DNA from: Escherichia phage Bp4
Sequence record: NC_024142.2
Length of the DNA stretch: 64,000 nucleotides
Reading direction: 5' to 3' (one strand)
Shown here one piece after another: positions 16,355 to 30,228 of this stretch. Made by a program: the position numbers and the translations under genes. The notes beneath the pieces were generated by a model. The model saw only the letters and a list, made by a program, of their open reading frames with translations, was not told the DNA's origin and did no database searches. Position 1 is the stretch's first letter, and each line of letters starts with the position of its first letter.

Positions 16355-19300
16355 TTGAACAGGAAACATGCTATGTCAACATTTGACCGTCTGGCAGGTT
16401 TCGCAGACAGCATCACTAATGCTAAGCAAGTCGATGTCTCTACTGCAACCTCTCAGAAGCAAGCTGCACAAGGGCAAAGCCCTTTCCAATTAACCCCAGA
16501 GAATGCTTACAATCTCCAGACTGGACGAGTAGGTAATCTTGGAATCGGTGCATTCGAACCAGGTTCACTTCAGGCAGATTTCACTCAAGCCTCCCCATTA
16601 GAAATCATTAATAAGTACGGTAATGAGCAAGGTTTACAAATTCTTAATAGCCGAGCTAATGCTGCTGATGTTGTACGTCAGGACTTATCTAAACAACGTA
16701 CTAACGCAGAAGCATTTGGCGATACTCTTTCTGGTGTTGGTCTTGGTGTTGCTAATACCCTTGGGGGCATTGCTGCTCTTGGTACAGGCTTGGTCAATGA
16801 TAATGCCGGGGCATCCATTGCTTCCGGTCTTGACTGGTTGAATAAAGGTGTACACAACCTACAGTCTGATGCACTGAATGCTCGTCGTAATGTAGTACAG
16901 AACCAGAACGTAATATCTGCTCAAGAGAATGAGAAACTCTATAAGCAAGATATTGCTAAAGGAGAAAGTGAACTCGTTGCTTCTCTGTCTCGTATTGGAC
17001 GAGATGCCTATGATTCTGTTGCTAACACCCTGTCTAATGACATGGCTGCTACAGATGGCCTGGCTGAAGGTGTTGGTTCATTCTTTACTGGCGGTCCACT
17101 TATCCGTGGTGTATCTGCACTTGGTAAAGTAATGGTAGGTGGTGATAAAGCTGTTAAGGGTATTACCTTAGCTGCTGAATTAGGTTATCGTCCTGCACGT
17201 ATTGCACAGACTGCTGGTCGTGTTGCTGCACCTGCTATAGCAATTGGTGGTATGGAAGCTGGTGGTGCATACCAACAGACTGCTAATGAAATTATGGAAA
17301 TGCCATTCAGTGAACTGGCTGCTAAATCTCCTGTATACCAACAGCATATTAAAGACGGTCTGTCTCCTGAAGAAGCACGTCGCCAGACTGCATCTGAAAC
17401 AGGTATCACTGCTGCTGGCTTAACTGCTCCAGTTGCTGCTCTTACTGCTCCACTGGTATCCAAGTTTGAACTTAACCCACTTAAGGTAGGTTCACTGGCT
17501 GGTGCTGGTTCTAACATGCTGCGTGAGACTGTAGAAGAAGGTATCCAGTCTGGTACAAGTCAGTTTGCACAAAACAAGGCAATTCAGGGCAATGTAGATG
17601 CTGAGCGTGATTTGCTTAAAGGTGTGGGTGAACAAACTGGTCTGGGTGCATTGTATGGCTTCGGTTCTGCTGGAGTTGCTCAAGCTCCTGGTGCAACTGT
17701 TAAGGCTGCTGGTGCTGCCGTTGGTCCTGCTGTACGTACTACCCTGGCTGGTGCTTCTTTGGCTGGTAAGGCACTAGCAAAAGTAGCTTCACCTATTACT
17801 AACATCCTGGTTCAACGTGGGGAAGAAGTTGCTAAGCGTAATGAACAAGCATCCCCCGTATCTGATGCTACGGTTAACGCTGCTGCACAAGAAGCTACTG
17901 CTCAGGCAGAACAAGCTCAAGCAACTGTTCAGGAAGCAGTGGATGCAATGGATATTTCTCCAGAAGAGAAAGCTGCTGCTACCCAGTATGCTGCTGACTT
18001 AACTCAGGCAATGAAGTTTGACCCGGTAGAATTGGAACAAACTAACCCAGCAATCCGTGAAGCTGTTTCTGGTTCCACTAACCGTGTAGAAGCTATTCAG
18101 AAGATGGCTGACTTGGTTAATACTGCCGAAGACCCTAACGTTCAAATGGAAGCTGCAATCCAGATGTATGACAATATCATGTCTATGGATAGCTTCATTA
18201 ACCGTGACCCGGGTGCTTTGGCTAATCTGGAACAAGGTTCCCCTGCTGCTGCAATCGTAGACCAATTCTCCGGCCTGATGGCTAACGTACAGAATACCCC
18301 TAAAGTACTCCGTGCATTTCGTGCCATCCATTCCATGATTCAGGAACAGGCTGAAGCGGGTAAGCTGAAAGCTACTGAAGAAGCTAATCAAGCCCAAGCA
18401 AACAACATTGCTATGGCTGCTGATGTATCTCCAGAAGTGCTGGATGCAGATTCAGTGAACATGGTTCTGAAACATGCAAGTGAAGGTAAGATTACACTGG
18501 GGAATCGTCAACGTGCTGCCCTGCAATCTGCTGCTGCCTTATTACAGGGTGCACGAGAGTTCGACGCTAAAGCAGAAGAACTAGGCTTACGTCCTCAAGA
18601 TATTGTTAGTAAACAGATTAAAACCGATGAGTCTCGTTCTAATGAAGGACAGTACTCTGCGTTGCAACATGCGAAACGCATTCGTTCTGCGTATAACTCT
18701 GGTAACTTCGATTTGGCCTCCGCTTATCTGAGCGATTTTATGAAGTTCGCCCAGCACATGCAGAATAAGGTCGGAGCGTTGAATGAGCATCTGATTTCGG
18801 GGAATGCGGATAAGAATAAGTCTGTTCATTATCAGGCTCTCTCGCCTTCCCGTGAATGGGTACGTAGTCGTACTGGCCTCGGTGTCAATCCTTACGATAC
18901 CAAGTCTGTTAAGTTTGCCCAGCAAGTAGCACTGGAAGCTAAGACCGTAGCTGACATTGCTAACGCACTTGCTACGGCTTACCCGGAGCTTAATGTTTCT
19001 CATGTGAAAGTTACCTCGTTGGATTCACGTCTGAACAAGCCAGCTGCCCAGGTAGTTAAAGAGTTCCGTCAAGGTGGTCTTGATGCCACTCAGTCTCAAC
19101 AGACTAATGAACCAGTGAATCAGGTTGATGAAACTCCTGCACTAGTGCAAGAGGACACCACTACTGTACAGCCTAAAGATAAACTAGTGGTAGAAAATAA
19201 GACTGCTCCTACTAAAGAGACTAGTCCAAAAGCAGAAGAAGTCTCTACTACTGAATCTGAAAGAGATGCTTATGTGAAAGAAAATACTATTTCACAGGAA

Positions 19301-22300
19301 ATTCTTAATAAGAATGGTGACCGTAGAGAAAGCCCTTGGTTGTTTGCTGATGGTACTGTGGTTGGTTCTAATGGCGACCATATCAGCCTGTCCGACGTAT
19401 TTGGGCATGATGGTTATCGTGATATGTCTCTGGATACTGGTGCTATTCGCTCTACCTTCTATAAAGGTAGTGAGCAACCATTTGTATCTCTGCAACTGTT
19501 TGATAATCAGAAACTGACTGCTGAACAATTCAATACTGTTCAATCTTTCGTTGAAGCAAACAATGCACTGATTCAGGTTGGTGTAGATACGTCTGGGCGT
19601 AATACCAATAATGTTGAGAAGGAAGAAGTATCACTAGCTCAACTGAAAGCAGACTATACCGTCGGTGGTAAACCTCTATCGGAAATGGAAACAGTGTTCC
19701 CTGTTTATAACAATGACAAGACACCGAACCAGTTCATTAAATCATTCTCTCTTCCAGAAGAACCTAAGTCTCGTACCATTGGTTCCGAATCTCCTTTGAC
19801 TGATGTTAAGAAAGCACTGTCTTCTGCTGCTCGCTTTGAAGCATTTACTCAAAAAGAAAATAACGCTCTCACAAGTGATGTGATTAAGCGTTACCAGGAC
19901 TTATTTGAGTTTGGTGAAACTCTGAAGACTACTCTGTCTGACCGTCTGGCTAAGTTCCTTGCTAACAAGAACGTTGGTAAACGTTTTGCGGAAGGTACTG
20001 AGGCTAACCGTTGGGTAGGTGGTAAGTTACTTAACATCGTAGAGAAAGATGGTGACACCTTTAAGTTCAATGACCAGCTATTAGAAACTGCTGTACTTGC
20101 TGGTCTGCAATGGCGATTGACTGCTACACAGAATGCTGCTGTTAAAGACATGAAAGACGTAGCTGCTATTACTGGTGTGGAAGCATCTCTGCTACCAGAA
20201 GGTATTCTGGCTGACTTCGAGAATGCTCAGACCCTGGTTGAAGCTACTAACTCACTAGCTCAAAAGATTGAATCCTATTGGGGTTTGAATCGTAATCCTA
20301 ATGCACCTTTGGGGTATACCAAGGGTATCCCAATGGCAATGGCTACAGAGATTCTGTCTTCCCTTATTGAGATGGGTGAAGTTAAAGAGTCCATGTTAGA
20401 TGTGTCTGAGATTGACCCAGAATCTAATAAGACTGTTGGTCTGTATACCATTGAGAAGCTGGATGATAACGATGCCATTAATAAATTCCCTACTGCTATT
20501 GAGGAAACTGTCCTTTTAGAACCAGTAGAGAAATTGTATCTGGGTGATGACATTCCTTCCGTGGCTCAAACTCAGTTACGTAACCCGGCTGTTAAGAATA
20601 CCCCGGAACAGAAAGCTGCTCTCAAAGCAGAACAAGCTACTGAGTTTCGTGTACATATGCCGATGGTTAATTTCTATGAAGCATTGGGTCGTGACAACAT
20701 TCTGGAGTTAATGGGTGCTGGTGCTCTTAATCCAGAATTGCTGAATGTGAATACTGCTAAGTCTCTGGAAGGTAAAAACCTGTCCGTGTCCATGGCGTAT
20801 GATTCCTTGTTTGGTGTAATCAATCAAATTAAGGAACAGGAGAATGGACTGGATACACCTATTCACTATGGCTACAACATGACCCGTGTAGGTCGTATGC
20901 AGATGCTTGGTAAGAACAACCCACAGTCCAGCAAACTGGTACGTGAAGCAATCTTACCAACCTTCTCTACCATCGACTTGAGTAATGAAAACAGTCAAAC
21001 GTTCTCTGACTTCCAGTTAGGTCTGGCTCAGGCATTGGGCATCAAAGTTCATAAAATGTCCCGTGAAGTTATGTCGGATGAGCTGACTAAAGCTCTGGAA
21101 GGTAAATTGAAACCTGCCGTTGATATGATGGTCGAGTTTGATAAGTCTGGTCACTTACCTGCTGATGCAGTGGATATTCTGAAGACTTCCTTGGGGAATG
21201 ATAAATCATTCGTAGCTCTTATGGCCCTGATGGAATATGCCCGTTACCTGAATAGTGATGATCGTGCCAACTTTAATACCCCACTGTACGTTGAAGCCGA
21301 TGGTGTAACCAATGGACCAATTAACGCAATGGTATTAATGACTGGTGGTAAGTTTACTTCAGACTGGATTAAGAATACTGCTAAGGGTGGTTTGTTCTTT
21401 GGTAAAGCTGGCAAGACTATGAACGAACACCATTCGCACGAGGATAGTGTTGACCTGTATGAAGCATCCACTAATAGTCTGCAACAGGCACTGAATGAAT
21501 TACGTAATAATTACCGTAACAACGTTCCTGTTACGAATCAGATGAAGCATCTTCAGAAGTTAATGGACCTGTTCATTAAAGACTTCAATCTTAATGAAGA
21601 TGGTACTCTGGACCTGAAACGTGGTATCGCTAAAAACCCACTGACCATTACCATCTATGGTTCTGGTGCTCGTGGTATTGCTGGCAAAATGGTAAGTGCA
21701 ATTACTGATACCATCTACGAACGCTTCAGTGACGTTCTACAAGCCCGTGCTGCTGACCCTAGCATTTCCCCAGCTATGGCTATGTTTGGTAAGGAGGCTG
21801 CGTCTGAGGCTGATGCTCAGGCTATGCTGGATACTTTCCTTACTTCTATGGAAGCACTAACTGGTAATGTTCCGGTTATGCGTAAAGGTGAGTTGTCTAT
21901 TCAGCAGGTAGATGGTGCTCTGACTGGTAAGTTAGACCCTCAGAAGTTTACTGTATCCGGTAATGCTCTGAAGAACTTACAAGAGAACATGCTTCATCTG
22001 TTCGTTGAACCAATGCGTACTGGTATCCGAAATACCGTGGGTGAAGGTCTGATGTACTCTACTGAGAACTTGCAGAAAGCTACCCAGATTCAATCTCTGG
22101 TTCTGCAAGACATGTTCCAGCAACGTGTTCAGGAGAAACTGGCAGAAAAAGAAAAAGACCCAACATGGAAGAAGGGTGATTTCTTAACACAGAAAGAACT
22201 GAATGAAATCCAGGCTTCATTATCTCCACTGGCTCCAATGATTGAGACTGGTTCACAGACTTTCTACATTGCTGGTAGTGAGAATACTGATGTTGCTAAC

Positions 22301-25300
22301 CAAGTATTGGCTACCAACTTAGATGACCGTATGCGTGTGCCAATGAGCATCTATGCTCCTTCACAGGCAGGTGTAGCAGGTATTCCATTTATGACCATCG
22401 GTACAGGTGATGGCATGATGATGCAGACCCTTTCTACTATGAAAGGTGCTCCGAAGAATACCCTGAAAATCTTTGATGGTATGAACATTGGTATTAATGA
22501 CATTACTGATGCAAGCCGTAAAGCTAATGAGGCTGTATATACTTCCTGGCAGGGTAACCCTATCAAGAATGTTTATGACTCCTTTGCTAAGTTCATGAAG
22601 AACGTAGACTTCAGCAAACTGTCTGATGAAACCAAACAAGCTATCGCTAAATCTGCACTGGAATACGACCAACGTGAGGGTGCTACTGATGACCTGTTAC
22701 GTGTTGGTGCTGAACAGATTGAACGTAATCTGCGTAACATTGCTCTGGGTGTGGATATTCGTCATAAGGTAATGGACCAGGTACAGGTCACTGTTGACCA
22801 GATGGCTGCTGTTGGTGCTCCTTATGTGAACAACGGTAAAATCTCTCTGGAAGGTCTGACTGTAGACCAGCAAGTAGCTAAGCTGAACGAACTGTTTGAT
22901 GCTGAATTAAACAAGCGTCGTGATGCAGTACGTGCTGCTAAAGCAGAACCAGTGAAAGAAGTGCCAGCAATGGAACAGGTCGGTCGTGTACTGAAGTCTG
23001 GTGTACGTCTGCTGTCTAATGCTGCCATTACTAAACTGGCTAAAGAGATGTCCCCTGAACAACAAGCAGTACTGAAAGAAATACAGAAATCTCTTGCTGC
23101 TAAAGACTATAAGGTTGTTTATGGTACGCCTTCTCAACTGGATGCCTATGCTATTGAGAAGAACATTACTCGTCCAGCACCGGAAGATATTGAAGCTGCT
23201 GAAGCAGGTAATGCATATGGCTGGACTAACTTTGAAGATAAAACCATCTACTTAGTTACCCCTTCCTTAGAGACTCTGGTTCATGAATTGGTACATGCCT
23301 CTACTTTTGAATCTGTACTAGCTCACTACGAGGGTACTCCTAACGAAGCAGTCCAGAATATTGAAGACCTGATGAACCAGTTCCGTGCTCTTGATGTTAA
23401 GAATGAATCTCCGGCAGTACGTGAAGCATATGCCGATGCACTCAATACCATTAATGGCCACTTGTCCAATGGCTTTATTGAACCAGCAATGGCTAAAGCT
23501 GCTGCACTGAATGAGTACATGGCTTGGGGTTTAACTAACCGTGAACTTATAAGTAAGCAGAAGAAAACCACTGCACTTAAAACTATGGTTCAGGCTGTAT
23601 ATGAAGCAATCAAACGTCTGGTATTCGGACGTAAGAAAGCTCCTGCTAATGCAGATGATATGTTCTCTGGCTTACTGTTTAACTCTGCTGTAGTAATGCG
23701 TGGGCAGGCTCCTACTGCTGCTGTAGCCAAAGATACTACCTTGTTCCATAACAAAGCATACGGTGACAATACTCGTCTGGAAGAGCTAGGGAAAACCTTC
23801 GATAAGCTGATTACTAACTACATTGGTTCAGAACCAGTACAGCAAGTAATTCGTAAAGGTAAGTTCTCTGATGCAGTAGTAAAAGCAACTAAAGTAACTC
23901 GTGATGTTCAGGCTCATGGCTTCACCATGAATATGCAGGAACAGCGTCTCTTCACTAACATTGTTGCTGCACTAGCTACTGAGGCTGCTATTAACCCTGC
24001 TGCTATGGCTCGTGCACAGGAATACTACACGCATGTTACTAAGAACCTGACTGTTGAAGCGTTCATGGCTGACCCGGATAGTACTAACCCTGCTGACCGT
24101 TACTATGCACAGCAGAAGTTCGATACCATCATGGGTGCTAATAACATTGAGTTTGATGCACAGGGTCGTTCTTCCTTACTACCTACCTTTGTTGGTCTGG
24201 TAATGGTAAGTGAAGAAGTACGTAAGGTGCTGGCTGATATTTCTGTTATGAAAGCAGATAAAAAATCTGGCAATACTGTTGATGCAATGCTGACTAACAT
24301 CGGTACTGCTGCAATGGCTAGTCTGAATGCTCGTGTAGCAGGTGATACTAAAGCCACTAACGTACAGGAAGGTATGGATGCACTGGCTCAGACAATCATG
24401 CAGACCAGTCTTAACGCAGAATCCTTCTATGATTCCGTTGCTACTCCTACCGGTAATGCTATCGACCGTGCTAACCAGTATTTGGTGGACTCTATTGATG
24501 CATTGTCTACCCGTGCTTTAGAAGGTGCTCGTGAAGTTGCAGCTAATACCAAGAATCCATTGGTCAAAGGTGCTGCTCATGCTGCACAACTGGTAGCTGC
24601 TATTGCTACAGAGAAGAATGGTGCAATCGTAGCCGAAGGTGTTATGGCTGCAATGAACCAGGGTAAAGTATGGCAACCTTTCCATGACCTGGTTAATGAC
24701 ATAATTGGACGTACTAAGAGCAATGCTTCTGTATATGATTTGATTAAAGCAGTACGAGCACAAGTGCAGGCTGACCGTCAACAGTTCCGTGAACACTTGC
24801 CTACCACTATCGCATCCAAGTTCAGCCGTAAACTGACTAATGATGAGTGGAAAGCAATGCATACCGGTATGGGTAAAACTGACTTAGCTGTTCTGCGTGA
24901 CACTATGTCTTTGGATGAAATCCGTGACCTGCTGACTGACCAGAAGAATGTTGACCGTGAGGTTAATAAACTGGAAGCAGATTTGCAGAAACAAGCAGGA
25001 CGTAACTGGCCCCTGATTAACCGTAAATCTAAGCAACTGGCTCAGTATATGATTAACGGTACAGTCGGTAATAACCTGCTGCGTAATGCTACTGCAATTT
25101 CTCGTTTACTGGGTGAACGTAAGACTACACGTTCTGTTGTAGATGTAGCTCAGCTGGATAAACTGATTACCCTGTATGCACTGGAAGCAATGAGTAAGAC
25201 TGACCGTGAGGTGTTATCTTCACTGGCTCAGACAGAAGTTGAAGGCATGGACTTTGCTACTTCTTACCTGGTTGGTCAGCGTAAAGACGAAATGGCTAAA

Positions 25301-27085
25301 GCCAAGTCTGATAGCCGTGCAACCTTGAACCAGTACAAAGGATACATCCCAACTGAGAACAAACAGGGTGTTAACCTGATTGTTGCTGAAGATAATCAGT
25401 TTGCTGATTTGATTGAGAAATCCTATGTACGTCTTGGTACTTATCAGGGTAGCTCTGCTAACCGGGGTCCAGCACGTAGTTACTACTTTGCACCGGTACA
25501 GGCACAGGCTCCGTTCTCACAAGGTATCCTACAGAACGTTCGAAATACTGCTGGTGGTGTAGACCTTGGTACAGGCTTTACGATGGGAACCATGGTAGCT
25601 GGTCGTATTACTGACAAGCCTTCCGTAGACCGTATCACTAAAGCACTGGCTCGTGGTGAACGTGGCAATGAACCACTGCTGCCTGTATATGATGCTAATG
25701 GTAATGTAGTTGCTTATGAGCAATCTATTGACCCTAACATGCTGAAGCACATTGAGGGTGAGAATCATCTTGCTCGTGCAATCGGTGTATGGCGTGGTCG
25801 TCAGGTGGAAGAAGCTAAGGCTCAGCGTTTCAACGATATGCTAATTGAGAACCTGCATAGCATGTATGAGAACGACATTAAGATGTCTGCTTCTAATAAG
25901 TCCCAGTACGTTAACCTTCTTGGTTCTAAACTGGACCCAGTAACTGCCGATGCCCTTAAGCTGATGAACAGTGAAACTCGTCAGAAAGCAGAAAGTCTCT
26001 TTGGTCCAGGTGAATTGTGGGTGCGTCGTGACATGCTTAATGATGCTCTGGGTTATCGTGCAGCTTCTGTAGGAGATGCCTGGTCTGGTAATTCTCGTTG
26101 GTCACCAGAAACACTGGATACCTTCAAGAAAGCTATGTTGGGTGTATTCGGCAACCGTGCCTATAAGTATGTAATGGGTGGTGAGAACCTGGTTCAGAAC
26201 TTAGTTAAAGAAGCTAAGACCCTGATTGTAGTTAAGTCAGTAGTTGTACCTGCTGTTAACTTCCTGGCTAACCTTTACCAGATGGTTGCTCGTGGTGTAC
26301 CTGTTAAGAACATTGCTAAGAGCATCCCACAAAAAACTGCTGAGATTAACCAGTATCTGAAATCTCGTCTGCGTCAGGTAGATGCAGAAGCAGAATTACG
26401 TGCAGCTACTAACCCGAACCAGATTCGTAAACTCAAGGCTGAGATTCAGTCCATCTCTGATAGCCATAAACGTTTGAGTATCTGGCCTCTGTTGGAAGCT
26501 GGTGAGTTCTCTTCAATTGCAGATGCTGGTATTGGCCGTGATGACATCCTGATTACTGAAGGTAAACTCCACGAATACATGGAAAAGCTGGCTGATAAGC
26601 TGCCTAAGTCTGTTCGTAACGCAGGTCGCTATGCACTTATCACTAAGGATACTGCTCTCTTCCAGGGTATTCAGAAGACGGTTGAGTACTCTGACTTTAT
26701 TGCTAAAGCAATCATCTATGATGAACTGACTCAGCGTAAAGGTAAGACTCGTGAAGAAGCACTGGGGCGTGTAACGGAAGAGTTCATTAACTATGACCGT
26801 CTGCCTGGTCGATTCCGTGGGTATATGGAAAGTGTTGGTTTGATGTGGTTCTACAACTTTAAGATTCGTTCTGCAAAAGTTGCAGTGTCCATGATTCGTA
26901 ATAACCCAGTACATGCTGCTATGGCTATGTTGGCTCCAACCCCTACCATGTTTGGTAACGTTGGTCTTCCTATTCAGGACAACATCTTTAGTATTGCTGC
27001 ACAAGGCAATCTTGGTTACTCCTTTGGTTTCGGTCAAGGCTTACGTGCCCACAACCTGAACCCTTGGCTCAACCTTACTAACTAA
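16355..27085 (+). CDS. giant virion-encapsidated RNA polymerase (N4 gp50-like vRNAP)
   Basis: Single uninterrupted 3576-aa ORF (10.7 kb). This size is a hallmark of N4-like phages. Last gene of the late operon, followed by a strong terminator. Confidence 0.85.
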   Translation: MNRKHAMSTFDRLAGFADSITNAKQVDVSTATSQKQAAQGQSPFQLTPENAYNLQTGRVGNLGIGAFEPGSLQADFTQASPLEIINKYGNEQGLQILNSRANAADVVRQDLSKQRTNAEAFGDTLSGVGLGVANTLGGIAALGTGLVNDNAGASIASGLDWLNKGVHNLQSDALNARRNVVQNQNVISAQENEKLYKQDIAKGESELVASLSRIGRDAYDSVANTLSNDMAATDGLAEGVGSFFTGGPLIRGVSALGKVMVGGDKAVKGITLAAELGYRPARIAQTAGRVAAPAIAIGGMEAGGAYQQTANEIMEMPFSELAAKSPVYQQHIKDGLSPEEARRQTASETGITAAGLTAPVAALTAPLVSKFELNPLKVGSLAGAGSNMLRETVEEGIQSGTSQFAQNKAIQGNVDAERDLLKGVGEQTGLGALYGFGSAGVAQAPGATVKAAGAAVGPAVRTTLAGASLAGKALAKVASPITNILVQRGEEVAKRNEQASPVSDATVNAAAQEATAQAEQAQATVQEAVDAMDISPEEKAAATQYAADLTQAMKFDPVELEQTNPAIREAVSGSTNRVEAIQKMADLVNTAEDPNVQMEAAIQMYDNIMSMDSFINRDPGALANLEQGSPAAAIVDQFSGLMANVQNTPKVLRAFRAIHSMIQEQAEAGKLKATEEANQAQANNIAMAADVSPEVLDADSVNMVLKHASEGKITLGNRQRAALQSAAALLQGAREFDAKAEELGLRPQDIVSKQIKTDESRSNEGQYSALQHAKRIRSAYNSGNFDLASAYLSDFMKFAQHMQNKVGALNEHLISGNADKNKSVHYQALSPSREWVRSRTGLGVNPYDTKSVKFAQQVALEAKTVADIANALATAYPELNVSHVKVTSLDSRLNKPAAQVVKEFRQGGLDATQSQQTNEPVNQVDETPALVQEDTTTVQPKDKLVVENKTAPTKETSPKAEEVSTTESERDAYVKENTISQEILNKNGDRRESPWLFADGTVVGSNGDHISLSDVFGHDGYRDMSLDTGAIRSTFYKGSEQPFVSLQLFDNQKLTAEQFNTVQSFVEANNALIQVGVDTSGRNTNNVEKEEVSLAQLKADYTVGGKPLSEMETVFPVYNNDKTPNQFIKSFSLPEEPKSRTIGSESPLTDVKKALSSAARFEAFTQKENNALTSDVIKRYQDLFEFGETLKTTLSDRLAKFLANKNVGKRFAEGTEANRWVGGKLLNIVEKDGDTFKFNDQLLETAVLAGLQWRLTATQNAAVKDMKDVAAITGVEASLLPEGILADFENAQTLVEATNSLAQKIESYWGLNRNPNAPLGYTKGIPMAMATEILSSLIEMGEVKESMLDVSEIDPESNKTVGLYTIEKLDDNDAINKFPTAIEETVLLEPVEKLYLGDDIPSVAQTQLRNPAVKNTPEQKAALKAEQATEFRVHMPMVNFYEALGRDNILELMGAGALNPELLNVNTAKSLEGKNLSVSMAYDSLFGVINQIKEQENGLDTPIHYGYNMTRVGRMQMLGKNNPQSSKLVREAILPTFSTIDLSNENSQTFSDFQLGLAQALGIKVHKMSREVMSDELTKALEGKLKPAVDMMVEFDKSGHLPADAVDILKTSLGNDKSFVALMALMEYARYLNSDDRANFNTPLYVEADGVTNGPINAMVLMTGGKFTSDWIKNTAKGGLFFGKAGKTMNEHHSHEDSVDLYEASTNSLQQALNELRNNYRNNVPVTNQMKHLQKLMDLFIKDFNLNEDGTLDLKRGIAKNPLTITIYGSGARGIAGKMVSAITDTIYERFSDVLQARAADPSISPAMAMFGKEAASEADAQAMLDTFLTSMEALTGNVPVMRKGELSIQQVDGALTGKLDPQKFTVSGNALKNLQENMLHLFVEPMRTGIRNTVGEGLMYSTENLQKATQIQSLVLQDMFQQRVQEKLAEKEKDPTWKKGDFLTQKELNEIQASLSPLAPMIETGSQTFYIAGSENTDVANQVLATNLDDRMRVPMSIYAPSQAGVAGIPFMTIGTGDGMMMQTLSTMKGAPKNTLKIFDGMNIGINDITDASRKANEAVYTSWQGNPIKNVYDSFAKFMKNVDFSKLSDETKQAIAKSALEYDQREGATDDLLRVGAEQIERNLRNIALGVDIRHKVMDQVQVTVDQMAAVGAPYVNNGKISLEGLTVDQQVAKLNELFDAELNKRRDAVRAAKAEPVKEVPAMEQVGRVLKSGVRLLSNAAITKLAKEMSPEQQAVLKEIQKSLAAKDYKVVYGTPSQLDAYAIEKNITRPAPEDIEAAEAGNAYGWTNFEDKTIYLVTPSLETLVHELVHASTFESVLAHYEGTPNEAVQNIEDLMNQFRALDVKNESPAVREAYADALNTINGHLSNGFIEPAMAKAAALNEYMAWGLTNRELISKQKKTTALKTMVQAVYEAIKRLVFGRKKAPANADDMFSGLLFNSAVVMRGQAPTAAVAKDTTLFHNKAYGDNTRLEELGKTFDKLITNYIGSEPVQQVIRKGKFSDAVVKATKVTRDVQAHGFTMNMQEQRLFTNIVAALATEAAINPAAMARAQEYYTHVTKNLTVEAFMADPDSTNPADRYYAQQKFDTIMGANNIEFDAQGRSSLLPTFVGLVMVSEEVRKVLADISVMKADKKSGNTVDAMLTNIGTAAMASLNARVAGDTKATNVQEGMDALAQTIMQTSLNAESFYDSVATPTGNAIDRANQYLVDSIDALSTRALEGAREVAANTKNPLVKGAAHAAQLVAAIATEKNGAIVAEGVMAAMNQGKVWQPFHDLVNDIIGRTKSNASVYDLIKAVRAQVQADRQQFREHLPTTIASKFSRKLTNDEWKAMHTGMGKTDLAVLRDTMSLDEIRDLLTDQKNVDREVNKLEADLQKQAGRNWPLINRKSKQLAQYMINGTVGNNLLRNATAISRLLGERKTTRSVVDVAQLDKLITLYALEAMSKTDREVLSSLAQTEVEGMDFATSYLVGQRKDEMAKAKSDSRATLNQYKGYIPTENKQGVNLIVAEDNQFADLIEKSYVRLGTYQGSSANRGPARSYYFAPVQAQAPFSQGILQNVRNTAGGVDLGTGFTMGTMVAGRITDKPSVDRITKALARGERGNEPLLPVYDANGNVVAYEQSIDPNMLKHIEGENHLARAIGVWRGRQVEEAKAQRFNDMLIENLHSMYENDIKMSASNKSQYVNLLGSKLDPVTADALKLMNSETRQKAESLFGPGELWVRRDMLNDALGYRAASVGDAWSGNSRWSPETLDTFKKAMLGVFGNRAYKYVMGGENLVQNLVKEAKTLIVVKSVVVPAVNFLANLYQMVARGVPVKNIAKSIPQKTAEINQYLKSRLRQVDAEAELRAATNPNQIRKLKAEIQSISDSHKRLSIWPLLEAGEFSSIADAGIGRDDILITEGKLHEYMEKLADKLPKSVRNAGRYALITKDTALFQGIQKTVEYSDFIAKAIIYDELTQRKGKTREEALGRVTEEFINYDRLPGRFRGYMESVGLMWFYNFKIRSAKVAVSMIRNNPVHAAMAMLAPTPTMFGNVGLPIQDNIFSIAAQGNLGYSFGFGQGLRAHNLNPWLNLTN

Positions 27086-27092
27086 ATGAAAA

Positions 27093-27120
27093 AGCCCCTC
27101 TAATGAGGGGCTTTTATTTT
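27093..27120. terminator. bidirectional intrinsic terminator after vRNAP
   Basis: Hairpin AGCCCCTC-TAAT-GAGGGGCT followed by TTTTATTTT; lies between convergent genes. Confidence 0.6.
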
Positions 27121-27638
27121 TACTGAGCTAACACCCAATCTTCTGCTAATACATCTGATTGAGATGGAACCCATGGCATAAACTGGTTATCAACGGTTTT
27201 AATACCCAGCCAATCCCGTTTCTCACAAACGGTATTTTCATGTTTATCCATGGCCCAATTTTCACCAGATACTAAGGTGATATACATTCCTTTTCCGTTC
27301 CAACCTTTACGGGTCATTCTAAAGCCTGATTTGAGAATCTCTACTGCATGACCAAAGGTACAACCTTTTTCTACGTCACGGTATGCAGCTTCGAATGTAG
27401 CTTTAGGTGACCAGCTAATATAGCCACGGAATTGGGGATGGTTGGACTTAGAGTCTGGATACTCGACTAAGTAGCCTTCTTCTAGCGGGTCTTCATCTGC
27501 TGGTACATCCCAACCACGAAGTTTGCAGTATGTTTCTTTGCTCATCGGGAAACCATTTACACACTTGGTTCCAATGTAGTTGGTGAAATGGACTTTAATT
27601 TCTTCTGACATAACTACCTCAAATGAGAAAGCCCTCAC
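27120..27638 (-). CDS. hypothetical protein with DUF2829-like motifs (candidate Tad2-like anti-defence protein)
   Basis: 172-aa ORF. Motifs RKGWNGKGMYITL and C-terminal WVPSQSDVLAEDWVL resemble DUF2829 as recalled; unverified. Confidence 0.45.
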   Translation of the reverse strand: MRAFSFEVVMSEEIKVHFTNYIGTKCVNGFPMSKETYCKLRGWDVPADEDPLEEGYLVEYPDSKSNHPQFRGYISWSPKATFEAAYRDVEKGCTFGHAVEILKSGFRMTRKGWNGKGMYITLVSGENWAMDKHENTVCEKRDWLGIKTVDNQFMPWVPSQSDVLAEDWVLAQ

Positions 27639-28122: not shown

Positions 28123-28170
28123 AGAGTGGTTTGAATTTGTACTTAAGCATGATTGCGTTCATCAATACTC

Positions 28171-28198
28171 AAATAAAAAAGTCCCTCCGAAGAGGGAC
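28171..28198 (-). terminator. intrinsic terminator downstream of tRNA region (minus-strand sense)
   Basis: Hairpin GTCCCTC-CGAA-GAGGGAC followed on the minus strand by TTTTTTATTT. Confidence 0.55.
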
Positions 28199-28426
28199 TT
28201 AGTAGCTTTAACGCAGCTAACGAGGCTAGGCCAGTTAACTATTACCACCGGTGCTTGTACCAGCAAACAGGATTGATAGTCCGATAATAGTTAACTGTAA
28301 TTGAGCATTATAGTCTGCTCATACTCACACCGTTAGGTATGTTTTCAATAATTAGAGTGCCGGACTGTCTCACCGGCATTGTCTTTAGAGTGCAATGCAA
28401 TCAGGACTATGTTCTCTATTAATAAG

Positions 28427-28500
28427 TACCCACTACTGGATTTGAACCAGTGACCTTCCGATTATTAGTCGGTTGCTTTCCCCGTCTAAGCTAAGTGGGC
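28427..28500 (-). tRNA. tRNA with apparent anticodon AAU (Ile-like), 74 nt, CCA not encoded
   Basis: Hand-folded cloverleaf on minus strand: acceptor GCCCACU/AGUGGGU, D-stem GCUU/AAGC, anticodon stem ACCGA/UCGGA with loop CUAAUAA, T-stem ACUGG/CCAGU with loop UUCAAAU. Confidence 0.55.
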
Positions 28501-28945
28501 ATAAATGAGTGAGTCATGCCAGACTTTAACTGGCTCCTTCTTCGCAATCCTTACATACCCCTACATAATTATTGCGTTAAGCTTATATTGTTTAAGTTTA
28601 AGTGAAGGCGTTCTTGCTGACTCATAATAGGGTGGGCGTTTGACGAATGACTAGTTCGTTACTACCCGTTTGCCATAAGTACCTGGCGACTTTGGTTTGA
28701 GGCGGGAGTCCGAGTCCTGTACAGCCTTACCGTTCACACATTGGCAGCGTATCTAGAATAGCACTTCCGGCAACTGGATTTAACTGTTACACCCCAAATC
28801 TGGTAGGGGCGTCCAGAAGTCTCATCTGGTACTTACGCCGTCGTATGGTTACGACTTACCCCCATAATCTTTCTAATTCAAAGTAGCACTGCTCCATGTT
28901 TGGCCTTTGAACTCCGGGATGGATTAGTGCAATGCTACTTTGAAT

Positions 28946-29137
28946 TGGTTACCAGTGAGGGATTCGAACCCCCGGTTGGAGTCTATAGCTTACCGCAGCA
29001 GCTCTCCAATCTAGCGGTGTCACACTTAGTCCAAACTTGAACATATCAAGCTATCTCGTGCAACTGATAATTGGTTCCGGCGTCTGGACTCGAACCAGAA
29101 CACTTATGCCGTGCACGACACTAGTACCTACACCGGA
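28946..29137 (-). other. tandem tRNA-like elements that do not fold into a canonical cloverleaf by hand
   Basis: Minus-strand T-arms GGGGG-UUCGAAU-CCCUC and UCUGG-UUCGAGU-CCAGA, each followed by acceptor 3' strand, discriminator A and encoded CCA; matching 5' acceptor strands lie at non-canonical distances (about 124 and 66 nt). Confidence 0.3.
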
Positions 29138-29204
29138 ATTAATTGCCAGGGATTCCACCTGGTCCATCTGTTTTTATAGTCACTCAGATATCGTCTGGAC
29201 TGTA

Positions 29205-29282
29205 GGCATGGGTGGGAATCGAACCCACAAACCATTCAGCACTGTAGCCTCACGCTCTACCTATTTGAGCTATCACACACCA
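29205..29282 (-). other. tRNA-like element (good T-arm and D-arm, imperfect acceptor and anticodon stems)
   Basis: Minus strand: D-arm GCUC-AAAUAGGUA-GAGC and T-arm GUGGG-UUCGAUU-CCCAC; acceptor pairs 6 of 7; anticodon stem pairs poorly. Confidence 0.3.
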
Positions 29283-29572
29283 TTGATTAACTCCCCGTTT
29301 CTAATACACGGACGAGGACACTCCATGGTCGTTTGATAATCAGGACGACTCACTCCCGACTGACGCTTGGCTTATTAGGCTGCCATCAGAACAACATCAT
29401 CGTTTGCATTTATGTTATTGGTTCGTTTCTAAAAAACCGCATAATCGCTTACGAAAACTATCAAAGAGTACACTAAGCACAGGTAGCTACCCTGCCGTCT
29501 TCTCCACCTACACCGGCTACAGTGTAAACCTCCGCACGTTAGCTTAATGTACTCATTGATAGGATGTCAGTA

Positions 29573-29642
29573 GGTCGGGGGCTGGATTCGAACCAGCGAG
29601 AGAAGTAGCGACCATCTGCACATGCCTACGTGCTACCTCGAC
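29573..29642 (-). other. tRNA-like element (about 70 nt, short anticodon region)
   Basis: Minus strand: acceptor GUCGAGG/CCCCGAC (6 of 7), D-arm GCAC-GUAGGCAU-GUGC, T-arm GCUGG-UUCGAAU-CCAGC; anticodon/variable region 2-3 nt shorter than canonical. Confidence 0.3.
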
Positions 29643-30027
29643 CATTATAATAGGAGGGAGGGGACGAGTCCTCCCTTTATACCCTATATTGCATGTAAGA
29701 CCTAACAATTCGATGCTGTAGGTAGCTATGCTATCCGACATTTAACCCAGCCATATAGGGCTTATGTGATTAAAATGCTCAACATTGAGCGGTTAGTTTG
29801 ATAAGGGATCTGAAGCCTTATCCCAAAGATACTAACCTTTGGGATATAGCCTATCATTCAGAAATGGCCCCTATAGGGAGAGGCCATTGATTAACCCGAA
29901 TGTTGCTTTACATTTTCTGTGATAACCCATTCTTAAAATAGTTTACCTGACGGATGGGGGCCACCCCTAGCGTCAGTGCCATACGGCAAAGATTAAGTTA
30001 AGAAAGGTTATGATAGGAGTTCCTATC

Positions 30028-30228
30028 TCAAAGGATTCTAACAGAACCCTTCACGATATTAACTACTCTTTTTAATGCTTCTACTTCACCCTCTCTATAC
30101 CAAGCATATGGTACTAAGATTTTGCAGCCTTCTGATTCAATGTGAAATGCTTTCTTTCCTTCAACGGGTTCTCCACCCATGAAAGAACTAACCTTTCCAT
30201 TGAGCCAGTGAATAGTAAATTTGTTCAT
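30028..30228 (-). CDS. hypothetical small protein
   Basis: 66-aa ORF at the 5' side of the minus-strand replication block. Confidence 0.35.
   Translation of the reverse strand: MNKFTIHWLNGKVSSFMGGEPVEGKKAFHIESEGCKILVPYAWYREGEVEALKRVVNIVKGSVRIL

Follow-up and report, generated by a model that had tools for sequence, protein, structure and literature searches.

A conserved RNA-compatible helix with an exchangeable interior in the tRNA-like array of Escherichia phage Bp4, and its possible role as a processing site

The 64,000-nucleotide (nt) stretch of Escherichia phage Bp4 analysed here (record NC_024142.2; the window, below) carries at positions 28875-28946 a long imperfect inverted repeat, which we call S2. 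Our comparison with related phages shows that S2 is a conserved RNA-compatible helix under selection, with compensatory changes in its arms, and that it belongs to a widespread class of stems in which a conserved helix of about 18 base pairs (bp), with one internal mismatch, holds an exchangeable structured RNA. S2 lies within a 1.9-kb minus-strand non-coding array of transfer RNAs (tRNAs), tRNA-like RNAs and a tag frame resembling that of transfer-messenger RNA (tmRNA); the suggestion in an earlier note on this DNA that the repeat might be part of a larger non-coding RNA is thus borne out, S2 being one module of this array. We propose, with a probability of roughly 0.4, that S2 may be a leader-trailer processing 'clamp', a helix in the polycistronic tRNA-like/tmRNA-like array that would probably serve as an entry site for RNase III.

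An inverted-repeat search places the two 18-nt arms at 28875-28892 and 28929-28946, complementary at 17 of 18 positions (94%) and 36 nt apart, as the earlier note had described them. The odd pair is a C.A mismatch on the plus strand and a U.G wobble in the minus-strand RNA, where the helix is unbroken, with 18 of 18 pairs including one G.U. In the RNA sense the 5' arm is AAUUCAAAGUAGCAUUGC (28929-28946, minus strand) and the 3' arm that pairs with it is GCAGUGCUACUUUGAAUU (28875-28892, minus strand). The enclosed 36 nt (28893-28928, minus strand; interior type A) comprise a 5-nt bulge, ACUAA, a 5-bp inner stem of UCCAU (28923-28919) and AUGGA (28897-28893), which is the nested hairpin already noticed in the sequence, and a 21-nt loop, CCCGGAGUUCAAAGGCCAAAC, which carries the motif CCCGGnrUUYAAAG. 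The first A of the 5' arm, base 28946, is at the same time the terminal A of the CCA end of the tRNA-like RNA directly upstream (module 6), and both C residues of this CCA are paired as well in many relatives, with the 3' flank GAAUUGG. On the other side, the spacer AGAAAGAUUAU separates S2 from the downstream module 8.

Structure prediction on the minus-strand transcript, which the earlier note had named as a check, gives S2 a minimum free energy (MFE) of -29.5 kcal/mol, compared with -15.6 +/- 2.9 kcal/mol for dinucleotide shuffles (z = -4.7; 0 of 200 shuffles as stable), and the hairpin survives in both the MFE and the centroid structure predicted for a 281-nt stretch around it. On the plus strand the fold is equally good. 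With an 11-nt seed, arms of at least 15 nt and a maximum of 200 nt between the arms, there are only three inverted repeats of this kind in the whole 64 kb, one of them the terminator at 27078-27127, and no second copy of the S2 arm motif was found in the window.

To place S2 among its relatives, we compared 21 annotated genomes and several IMG/VR contigs. The earlier note had named a lack of conservation as grounds for dismissing the repeat; instead, 44 phage records contain the short form of S2 and 13 a long form, which measures 120 nt and includes a cloverleaf; some records are on both lists. The phages on these lists are all Gamaleyaviruses or unclassified Gamaleyavirus-like phages, with the exception of Salmonella phage TR2 (genus Triduovirus). 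The pattern CCAATTCAAAGTAGCA returned mostly chance matches from IMG/VR, 5 of 22 being real Gamaleyavirus contigs (including L024, L026, L036 and L038). Because interiors of unequal length would disturb the alignment columns, pairing was scored on an arms-only alignment of 17 distinct sequences, in which the first 20 and last 20 nt were joined by AAAA. Standard pairs make up 91.8% of the cells of this alignment, and five of the 18 pairs have changed on both sides; the covarying pairs are 15:30 (CG/UG/UA), 17:28 (GC/CG) and 18:27 (UA/CG/GU), together with 5:40 and 6:39 in phage E20. None of 500 shuffles reached the observed pairing or covariation score, and sliding the partner by one to three columns reduces pairing to 22-45%. 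Phage PD205 has an altered 3' arm, CUUCUAAUU, which leads to two mismatches; in phage E20, whose 3' arm is identical, an altered 5' arm, AAUCAGAAG, repairs both of them, with six of the seven central positions paired. The first 14 nt of the 5' arm are invariant in 16 of the 17 distinct sequences. Across relatives there are four different elements upstream of S2 and at least four downstream, and S2 is kept where the neighbouring modules have been deleted or replaced. The junctions of these rearrangements coincide with the borders of S2 and with a short direct repeat, AACCAAUU, and deletion between copies of AACCAAUU can account for them.

The arms of S2 enclose five unrelated types of interior, designated A, B, C, cloverleaf and PhAPEC7 type. 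The cloverleaf interior, present in PD205, IME11, F22, E20 and Bas96, is tRNA-like and 90-92 nt long. The PhAPEC7 interior is similar, in reverse complement, to part of the cloverleaf, namely its T arm and 3' acceptor strand (z = 5.2; 0 of 300 shuffles). The loop motif CCCGGnrUUYAAAG is the sole likeness among types A, B and C, and local alignment of these three with the cloverleaf in both orientations was at chance level, from which we reject an origin as decayed cloverleafs. Within type A the interior has diverged by 6.5%, the arms by 1.5% and the upstream tRNA-like RNA by 3.1%. A few records annotate short open reading frames (ORFs) across S2; these are not conserved, because the interior is swapped for unrelated sequence of another length.

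The window contains a second stem of this design, S1 (29458-29562, minus strand), whose 21-nt arms, CUAUCAAUGAGUACAUUAAGC and GCUUAGUGUACUCUUUGAUAG (29458-29478 and 29542-29562), are 90% complementary and enclose a 63-nt interior; a tRNA-Ala(cgc)-like gene lies on one side of it and the tmRNA-like tag frame on the other. The layout of S1 matches that of S2, with a 7-bp base, one conserved non-pair (U.U; C.U in one locus), an upper helix of 9-10 bp and a variable insert, for which the relatives hold at least 13 unrelated versions. Wobbles in S1 are restricted to the RNA-sense strand in the loci examined, and in the more distant contig L052 an altogether different upper helix pairs at every position (GGUGAAUACG/CGUAUUCACC). 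The link between S1 and S2 comes from a cloverleaf cassette common to both. Over 90 nt, the cloverleaf of phage TR2 and the S2 insert of F22 are 90% identical, with differences that include compensatory ones (CAUAG/CUAUG to CACAG/CUGUG, and GCAGU/ACUGC to GCAAU/AUUGC). The TR2 copy is housed in another stem, GAGUACA.../...UGUACUC, directly 5' of the tag frame; this stem is S1, which is also present in the window. S1 is therefore probably a paralogue of S2. Paralogy of the whole S1 and S2 regions in the window was rejected, with a Smith-Waterman score of 32 against 29 +/- 5 for shuffles; the two are alike only in their arms and layout. The possibility of CRISPR-repeat mimicry was set aside: one S1 insert loosely resembles the E. 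coli I-E repeat and lacks an equivalent of its hairpin.

The inserts of S1 lead to a third stem outside the N4-like phages. Of 5426 complete E. coli genomes, 92 contain a sequence to which the S1 insert of contig L036 has 92% identity over 74 nt. The copy in E. coli HS (NC_009800.1, 308644-308717; L055, 4001-4074) belongs to a lambdoid prophage, where it follows closely on the late terminator, between the Q and holin genes, and is held by stem arms, GGUAAGAGCA.../...UGCUCUUUCC, that are unlike those of S1. We call this stem S0; its annotated context was examined at this one locus. The S0 pattern GGUAAGAGCAYUG ... CAGUGCUCUUUCC occurs in at least 120 IMG/VR loci (L056-L134 and others), with 79 distinct elements among the matches listed, and S0 is also found in some Gamaleyaviruses, after the tag frame. 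The interiors among the matches listed comprise about 45 unrelated sequences of 40-69 nt between the fixed pattern ends, with 56% G+C; a T-loop-like GTTCGA-type word is present in 10 of the 45, and their sub-hairpins covary within clusters. S0 and S2 have the core GCAYUG...CAGUGC in common, and identical inserts are housed in different stems in different phage lineages. At E <= 1, Rfam gave no family for S2 and none for S1 or the prophage S0 region. A 16-bp perfect stem in L052 (CACAACUGAGUGGCGG / CCGCCACUCAGUUGUG), about 130 to 270 nt after the tag frame, encloses two T-arm-like hairpins and is a further long clamp round tRNA-like pieces.

Unrelated inserts take one another's place with exact borders, also where the arms of the stems differ. 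One reading of this, which we consider rather unlikely, is that S0, S1 and S2 are the docking stems of an undescribed cassette system for small structured RNAs of enterobacterial phages, which in N4-like phages would be built into a non-canonical and possibly multi-piece tmRNA. Helices with the core GCAYUG...CAGUGC would then exchange modules of 36-90 nt with precise boundaries in such unrelated lineages as the lytic N4-like phages and the temperate lambdoid prophages, and the ACCA-ending RNA that abuts S2 would be the tRNA-like part of a phage tmRNA. The variety of inserts would reflect an arms race in which they act as decoys or specificity determinants, together with a mechanism of exchange, and not the neutral turnover of a spacer. 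The same stems with dozens of unrelated structured inserts, in N4-like phages and in lambdoid prophages, represent either a tolerated spacer or exchangeable functional cargo; in the latter case, phages would have a means of diversifying their small RNAs that is new. We give this comparative pattern more weight than the processing role of S2.

A selected helix that is positioned exactly at a CCA end, is retained when its neighbours change and tolerates any insert leads us to infer a role in punctuation or processing. An RNA processing structure was among the possibilities raised by the earlier note, and it is the interpretation that the anatomy, position, covariation and variable interior of S2 would favour. 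The 18-bp helix would form co-transcriptionally, extending to 23 bp when stacked on the inner stem, and may be where a double-strand-specific endonuclease, most likely the RNase III of the host, punctuates the transcript. A staggered cut would detach the upstream tRNA-like RNA, which exonucleases would then trim back to its CCA; the same cut would give RNase P access to the 5' leader of the following module, and the enclosed mini-RNA would be released or discarded. With 18 bp, and 5 bp more stacked coaxially past a one-sided 5-nt bulge, the double-stranded RNA of S2 comes to the roughly two turns, unbroken or nearly so, that an RNase III substrate needs. Two turns of double-stranded RNA in a polycistronic stable-RNA precursor are a classical RNase III substrate, for which the stems of ribosomal RNA (rRNA) operons, the intervening sequences (IVSs) of 23S rRNA, the early mRNA sites of T7 and the tRNA-cluster precursor of T4 are precedents. 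If S2 is a processing site, it would explain the maturation of this dense tRNA-like array, and its dependence on rnc would give an experimental handle.

The nearest known kind of element is an RNase III processing stem or an IVS. Like the RNase III stems of rRNA and the enterobacterial 23S IVSs, S2 is a helix of flanking sequences inside a polycistronic stable-RNA precursor, about two turns long and with an internal mismatch; as in the IVSs, a conserved closing stem holds highly variable and sporadically distributed content (5 types for S2, at least 13 for S1 and about 45 for S0). Unlike an IVS, S2 lies outside 16S and 23S rRNA, its cleavage is only predicted, and we do not claim membership for it in this non-rRNA context; Rfam gave no rRNA match at the S2 locus, which is a phage tRNA-like array. 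The inserts of the S2 family further differ from IVSs in including a conserved structured RNA, the cloverleaf, and in that identical inserts move between stems with different arms. The RNase III site of the T4 tRNA cluster and the R sites of T7 are phage hairpins that punctuate polycistronic transcripts, one of which carries tRNAs. S2 resembles them as a phage-encoded hairpin that would punctuate a polycistronic transcript; however, it has no sequence similarity to them, and the T7 sites have an asymmetric internal loop and no variable insert.

Several observations weigh against a processing clamp. The mean pairwise divergence in all 20 loci with the same upstream module is 4.1% for the 5' arm, 10.8% for the 3' arm and 2.9% for the module itself, so that the 3' arm of S2 diverges faster than the adjoining tRNA-like RNA; pair 7:38 is an A.C mismatch in 12 of the 17 sequences. 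This drift and mismatch imply that the outer S2 helix is loosely constrained. The summed mismatches are nearly equal on the two strands (24 on the minus and 21 on the plus strand), and the strand of S2 thus comes from its context and not from wobbles; we assign S2 to a minus-strand RNA because the flanking genes and tRNAs are all on the minus strand. The RNase III step is one that we purely infer, and 3' maturation of tRNA in E. coli normally proceeds through RNase E and exonucleases, with RNase III dispensable. Finally, functional cargo would account for conserved and structured interiors better than a throw-away spacer does: between two phage genera the cloverleaf insert keeps 90% identity, with compensatory changes, the S0 interiors are G+C-rich (56%) and covary within clusters, and interior types A-C have a common loop motif.

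These features of the interiors speak for the main rival explanation, which we hold to be doubtful, in which S2 is a protective, nuclease-resistant scaffold that is not cleaved and presents the enclosed module, a 36-nt stem-loop in the window and a tRNA-like cloverleaf in other phages, as the functional part, for example a decoy or regulator. The variety of the interiors would then arise from diversifying or frequency-dependent selection on the cargo, and the insert shared at 92% identity by an N4-like phage and lambdoid prophages, despite different arms, is consistent with this. However, no target was found for such cargo: the longest words of the S1 and S2 interiors that are complementary to the window's own transcripts are 9-11 nt, which is the level of shuffles, and 1 of 14 interior types matched E. 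coli genomes, the match being a prophage element of the same kind and so giving no host origin. The type A interior also evolves about twice as fast as the neighbouring RNA, and the interiors as a set fold no better than shuffles (mean z = -0.3). A scaffold is compatible with the processing reading, as in the rRNA stems that flank a functional RNA.

The drift of the 3' arm would also suit a functionless relic, in which S2 consists of the acceptor stem and leader-trailer pairing left over from a decayed tRNA or tRNA-like gene in a fast-rearranging tRNA region. The core GCAUUGC/GCAGUGC is as long as a 7-bp acceptor stem, a cloverleaf or T-arm-like hairpins are enclosed in some versions of these stems, and the locus has many degenerate tRNA-like genes and a gene content that varies between close relatives. 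We nevertheless regard a relic as unlikely: pairing has been kept through double compensatory changes, S2 survives the deletion of its neighbours, interiors A, B and C have no significant similarity to the cloverleaf in either orientation, and stems of similar design are conserved in more than one genus, the helix in L052 being fully covaried.

The similar mismatch counts on the two strands bear on a further explanation, in which S2 acts as DNA, with the inverted repeat extruding as a cruciform or hairpin and forming a hot spot of recombination or replication that is the source of the insert turnover. The end points of rearrangements at the hairpin borders agree with this, as does the resemblance of the PhAPEC7 interior to an inverted 3' half of the cloverleaf, which recombination between inverted arms predicts. 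Yet the direct repeat AACCAAUU explains the end points equally well, the T-arm match of PhAPEC7 could derive from any tRNA, S1 tolerates G.U on the RNA-sense strand only, and no recombinase or nuclease gene is associated with the locus; we therefore consider an element acting at the level of DNA very unlikely.

The earlier note had also considered a termination structure, and here the evidence goes against it. Being a stable hairpin where an RNA gene ends, S2 might be taken for an intrinsic terminator or attenuator of the tRNA-like transcript, but its stem is A/U-rich and is followed by AAUUAGAAAGAUUAUGG without a U tract, and it is absent from a terminator scan that does list 27090-27115 and 28200-28179. 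More RNA genes lie downstream on this strand before the terminator at 28200-28179 is reached, and we consider termination at S2 highly improbable.

Other known kinds of element were rejected as identities for S2. Neither ARAGORN nor the Rfam tRNA model RF00005 calls a tRNA at 28875-28946, where the interior is only 36 nt, and the cloverleaf-bearing versions of S2 in relatives are not called as tRNA either. The early promoter hairpins of N4, used by its virion RNA polymerase (vRNAP), have a stem of 5-7 bp and a loop of 3 nt and lie at the early end of the genome; S2 has an 18-bp stem and a 36-nt interior, and lies at the distal end of the minus-strand block beside the vRNAP gene. Integron attC sites resemble S2 in being imperfect inverted repeats with conserved ends and a variable centre of 20-100 nt, but the arms AATTCAAAGTAGCA ... 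TGCTACTTTGAATT have no RYYYAAC/GTTRRRY cores, and S2 comes with no integrase or ORF cassettes. The C4 RNA of P1 and P7 and the CI RNA of P4 are, like S2, small phage RNAs with an acceptor-like closing stem and variable specificity loops, and are excised from a longer transcript by tRNA-like processing. Unlike these antisense RNAs, S2 has no Rfam C4 match at E <= 1 and no 3' CCA, and its possible targets in the genome, as complementary words of 9-11 nt, are at the level of shuffles.

The tmRNA-like tag frame of the array, ANDDVVLMAA* (GCAAACGATGATGTTGTTCTGATGGCAGCCTAA, read from GCA to UAA), lies at 29375-29407 on the minus strand, in a context of about 29290-29560, and was identified by reading the sequence and comparing relatives. 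The frame has no in-frame start codon and ends in a hydrophobic ...AA tail, as tmRNA tags do. Between the window and TR2, which belongs to another genus, there are three differences in the frame, all of them synonymous, and variants in other relatives include ANEEAYLMVA, ANDQTFLAVA and ANDDVVLMVA. ARAGORN called no tmRNA in its search; the Rfam model of permuted tmRNA (RF04321) gave 30.6-34.7 bits in the five clearest loci and 23.1 bits in one further locus, against a threshold of 47, and direct reading found the G3:U70 acceptor pair in none of the ACCA-ending stems. These sub-threshold scores and the lack of G3:U70 indicate that the locus is not a canonical tmRNA. It is like the known tmRNAs (ssrA, two-piece forms and phage forms without a coding sequence) in its tag frame and in short, weak ssrA-like matches in the ACCA-ending RNA, and S2 sits where a 3' trailer hairpin would be; its architecture is that of no described form. 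A tag frame under purifying selection thus escapes the standard tmRNA finders, and makes interference of the phage with ribosome rescue, or its use of it, directly testable.

The RNA upstream of S2, module 6, is a 124-nt tRNA-like RNA (28946-29069, minus strand) with a 7-bp acceptor stem, UAUCAGU/ACUGGUA, two long extra arms, a 5-bp T stem and T loop (GGGGG-UUCGAAU-CCCUC), a discriminator A and CCA. In ten distinct relatives the acceptor pair 3:118 is CG in seven, UA in two and UG in one, and the T-stem pair 99:111 is AU in six and GC in four; these compensatory changes in the acceptor and T stems show module 6 to be a selected structure. The ACCA-ending tRNA-like element that the earlier note had placed next to the repeat is accordingly real, as a 124-nt RNA with covarying stems, which neither ARAGORN nor the Rfam tRNA model calls. 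Positions 28959-29034 (minus strand) of module 6 match the 3' end of E. coli ssrA in two short colinear stretches, UUGGACUAAG and CGGGGGUUCRAAUCCC; the matches are weak (E-values 0.5 and 0.03) and were obtained with an approximate ssrA query. It is a possibility, judging from the sequence, that module 6 may be the tRNA-like piece of a phage tmRNA-like system. A permuted tRNA or tmRNA, with the ACCA end as its 3' half, the hairpin as intervening sequence and UACCAG downstream as the 5' strand, was rejected, as module 6 owns a covarying 5' strand, UAUCAGU, at 29069. A kissing interaction between the S2 loop (AGGCCAAACAUG) and the tRNA-like RNA (CAAGUUUGGACU), which are complementary at 10 of 12 positions, was also rejected: it is not conserved in types B and C, though the partner is invariant, and the complementarity is probably due to chance.

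Two smaller RNAs flank this pair, both ending in ACCA and both identified by direct reading of the sequence: module 8, a 63-nt mini tRNA-like RNA at 28801-28863 (minus strand), and a 66-nt mini tRNA-like RNA at 29072-29137 (minus strand). Each has an acceptor stem and a T arm, with a single hairpin, long or short, in place of the D and anticodon arms. The acceptor of module 8 has the full 7 bp in phage Jgk1 (GGGGGCG/CGCCCCU), and in other relatives this module is swapped for a different one. Every tRNA-like module terminates in the short direct repeat AACCAAUU or in ACCA.

The window is assigned to an N4-like phage from its 3576-residue plus-strand ORF at 16355-27085, as a vRNAP of about 3500 residues is what we take to be the hallmark of this group. 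The phage is placed in the genus Gamaleyavirus of the Schitoviridae, and the 2-kb region round the hairpin is 99.8% identical to that of Escherichia phage PD38 and 99.0% identical to that of ECBP1. From position 27120 upward all ORFs are on the minus strand, and none in the interval 28130-30030 is credible. A bidirectional terminator hairpin, AAAAGCCCCTC-TAAT-GAGGGGCTTTT (27078-27127), stands where the plus-strand vRNAP gene meets the minus-strand gene block, and coincides with the turning point of the cumulative GC skew. A literature search returned nothing describing the RNA locus, and the GenBank records of relatives leave the hairpin locus unannotated.

ARAGORN calls three tRNAs in the array, all on the minus strand: tRNA-Ile(aat) at 28426-28500, which passes the Rfam tRNA model, and tRNA-Cys(aca) at 29202-29280 and tRNA-Ala(cgc) at 29572-29643, which fail it. 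Their anticodons, AAU, ACA and CGC, are unusual; anticodons with A34, such as AAU and ACA, are not the usual decoders in bacteria. Records of relatives label the non-Ile tRNAs of the window as pseudo or 'OTHER', and the gene content of the locus, rich in degenerate tRNA-like genes, differs even between close relatives. The array is closed by the terminator at 28200-28179. Between this terminator and tRNA-Ile lies the third long inverted repeat, CAGTTAACTATTA / TAATAGTTAACTG (28232-28297), with 13 perfect bp, arms 40 nt apart and a conserved interior. In phage Uz-1 the changes in its arms preserve pairing, with one compensatory pair and two G.U wobbles, and this repeat looks like a separate structured RNA.

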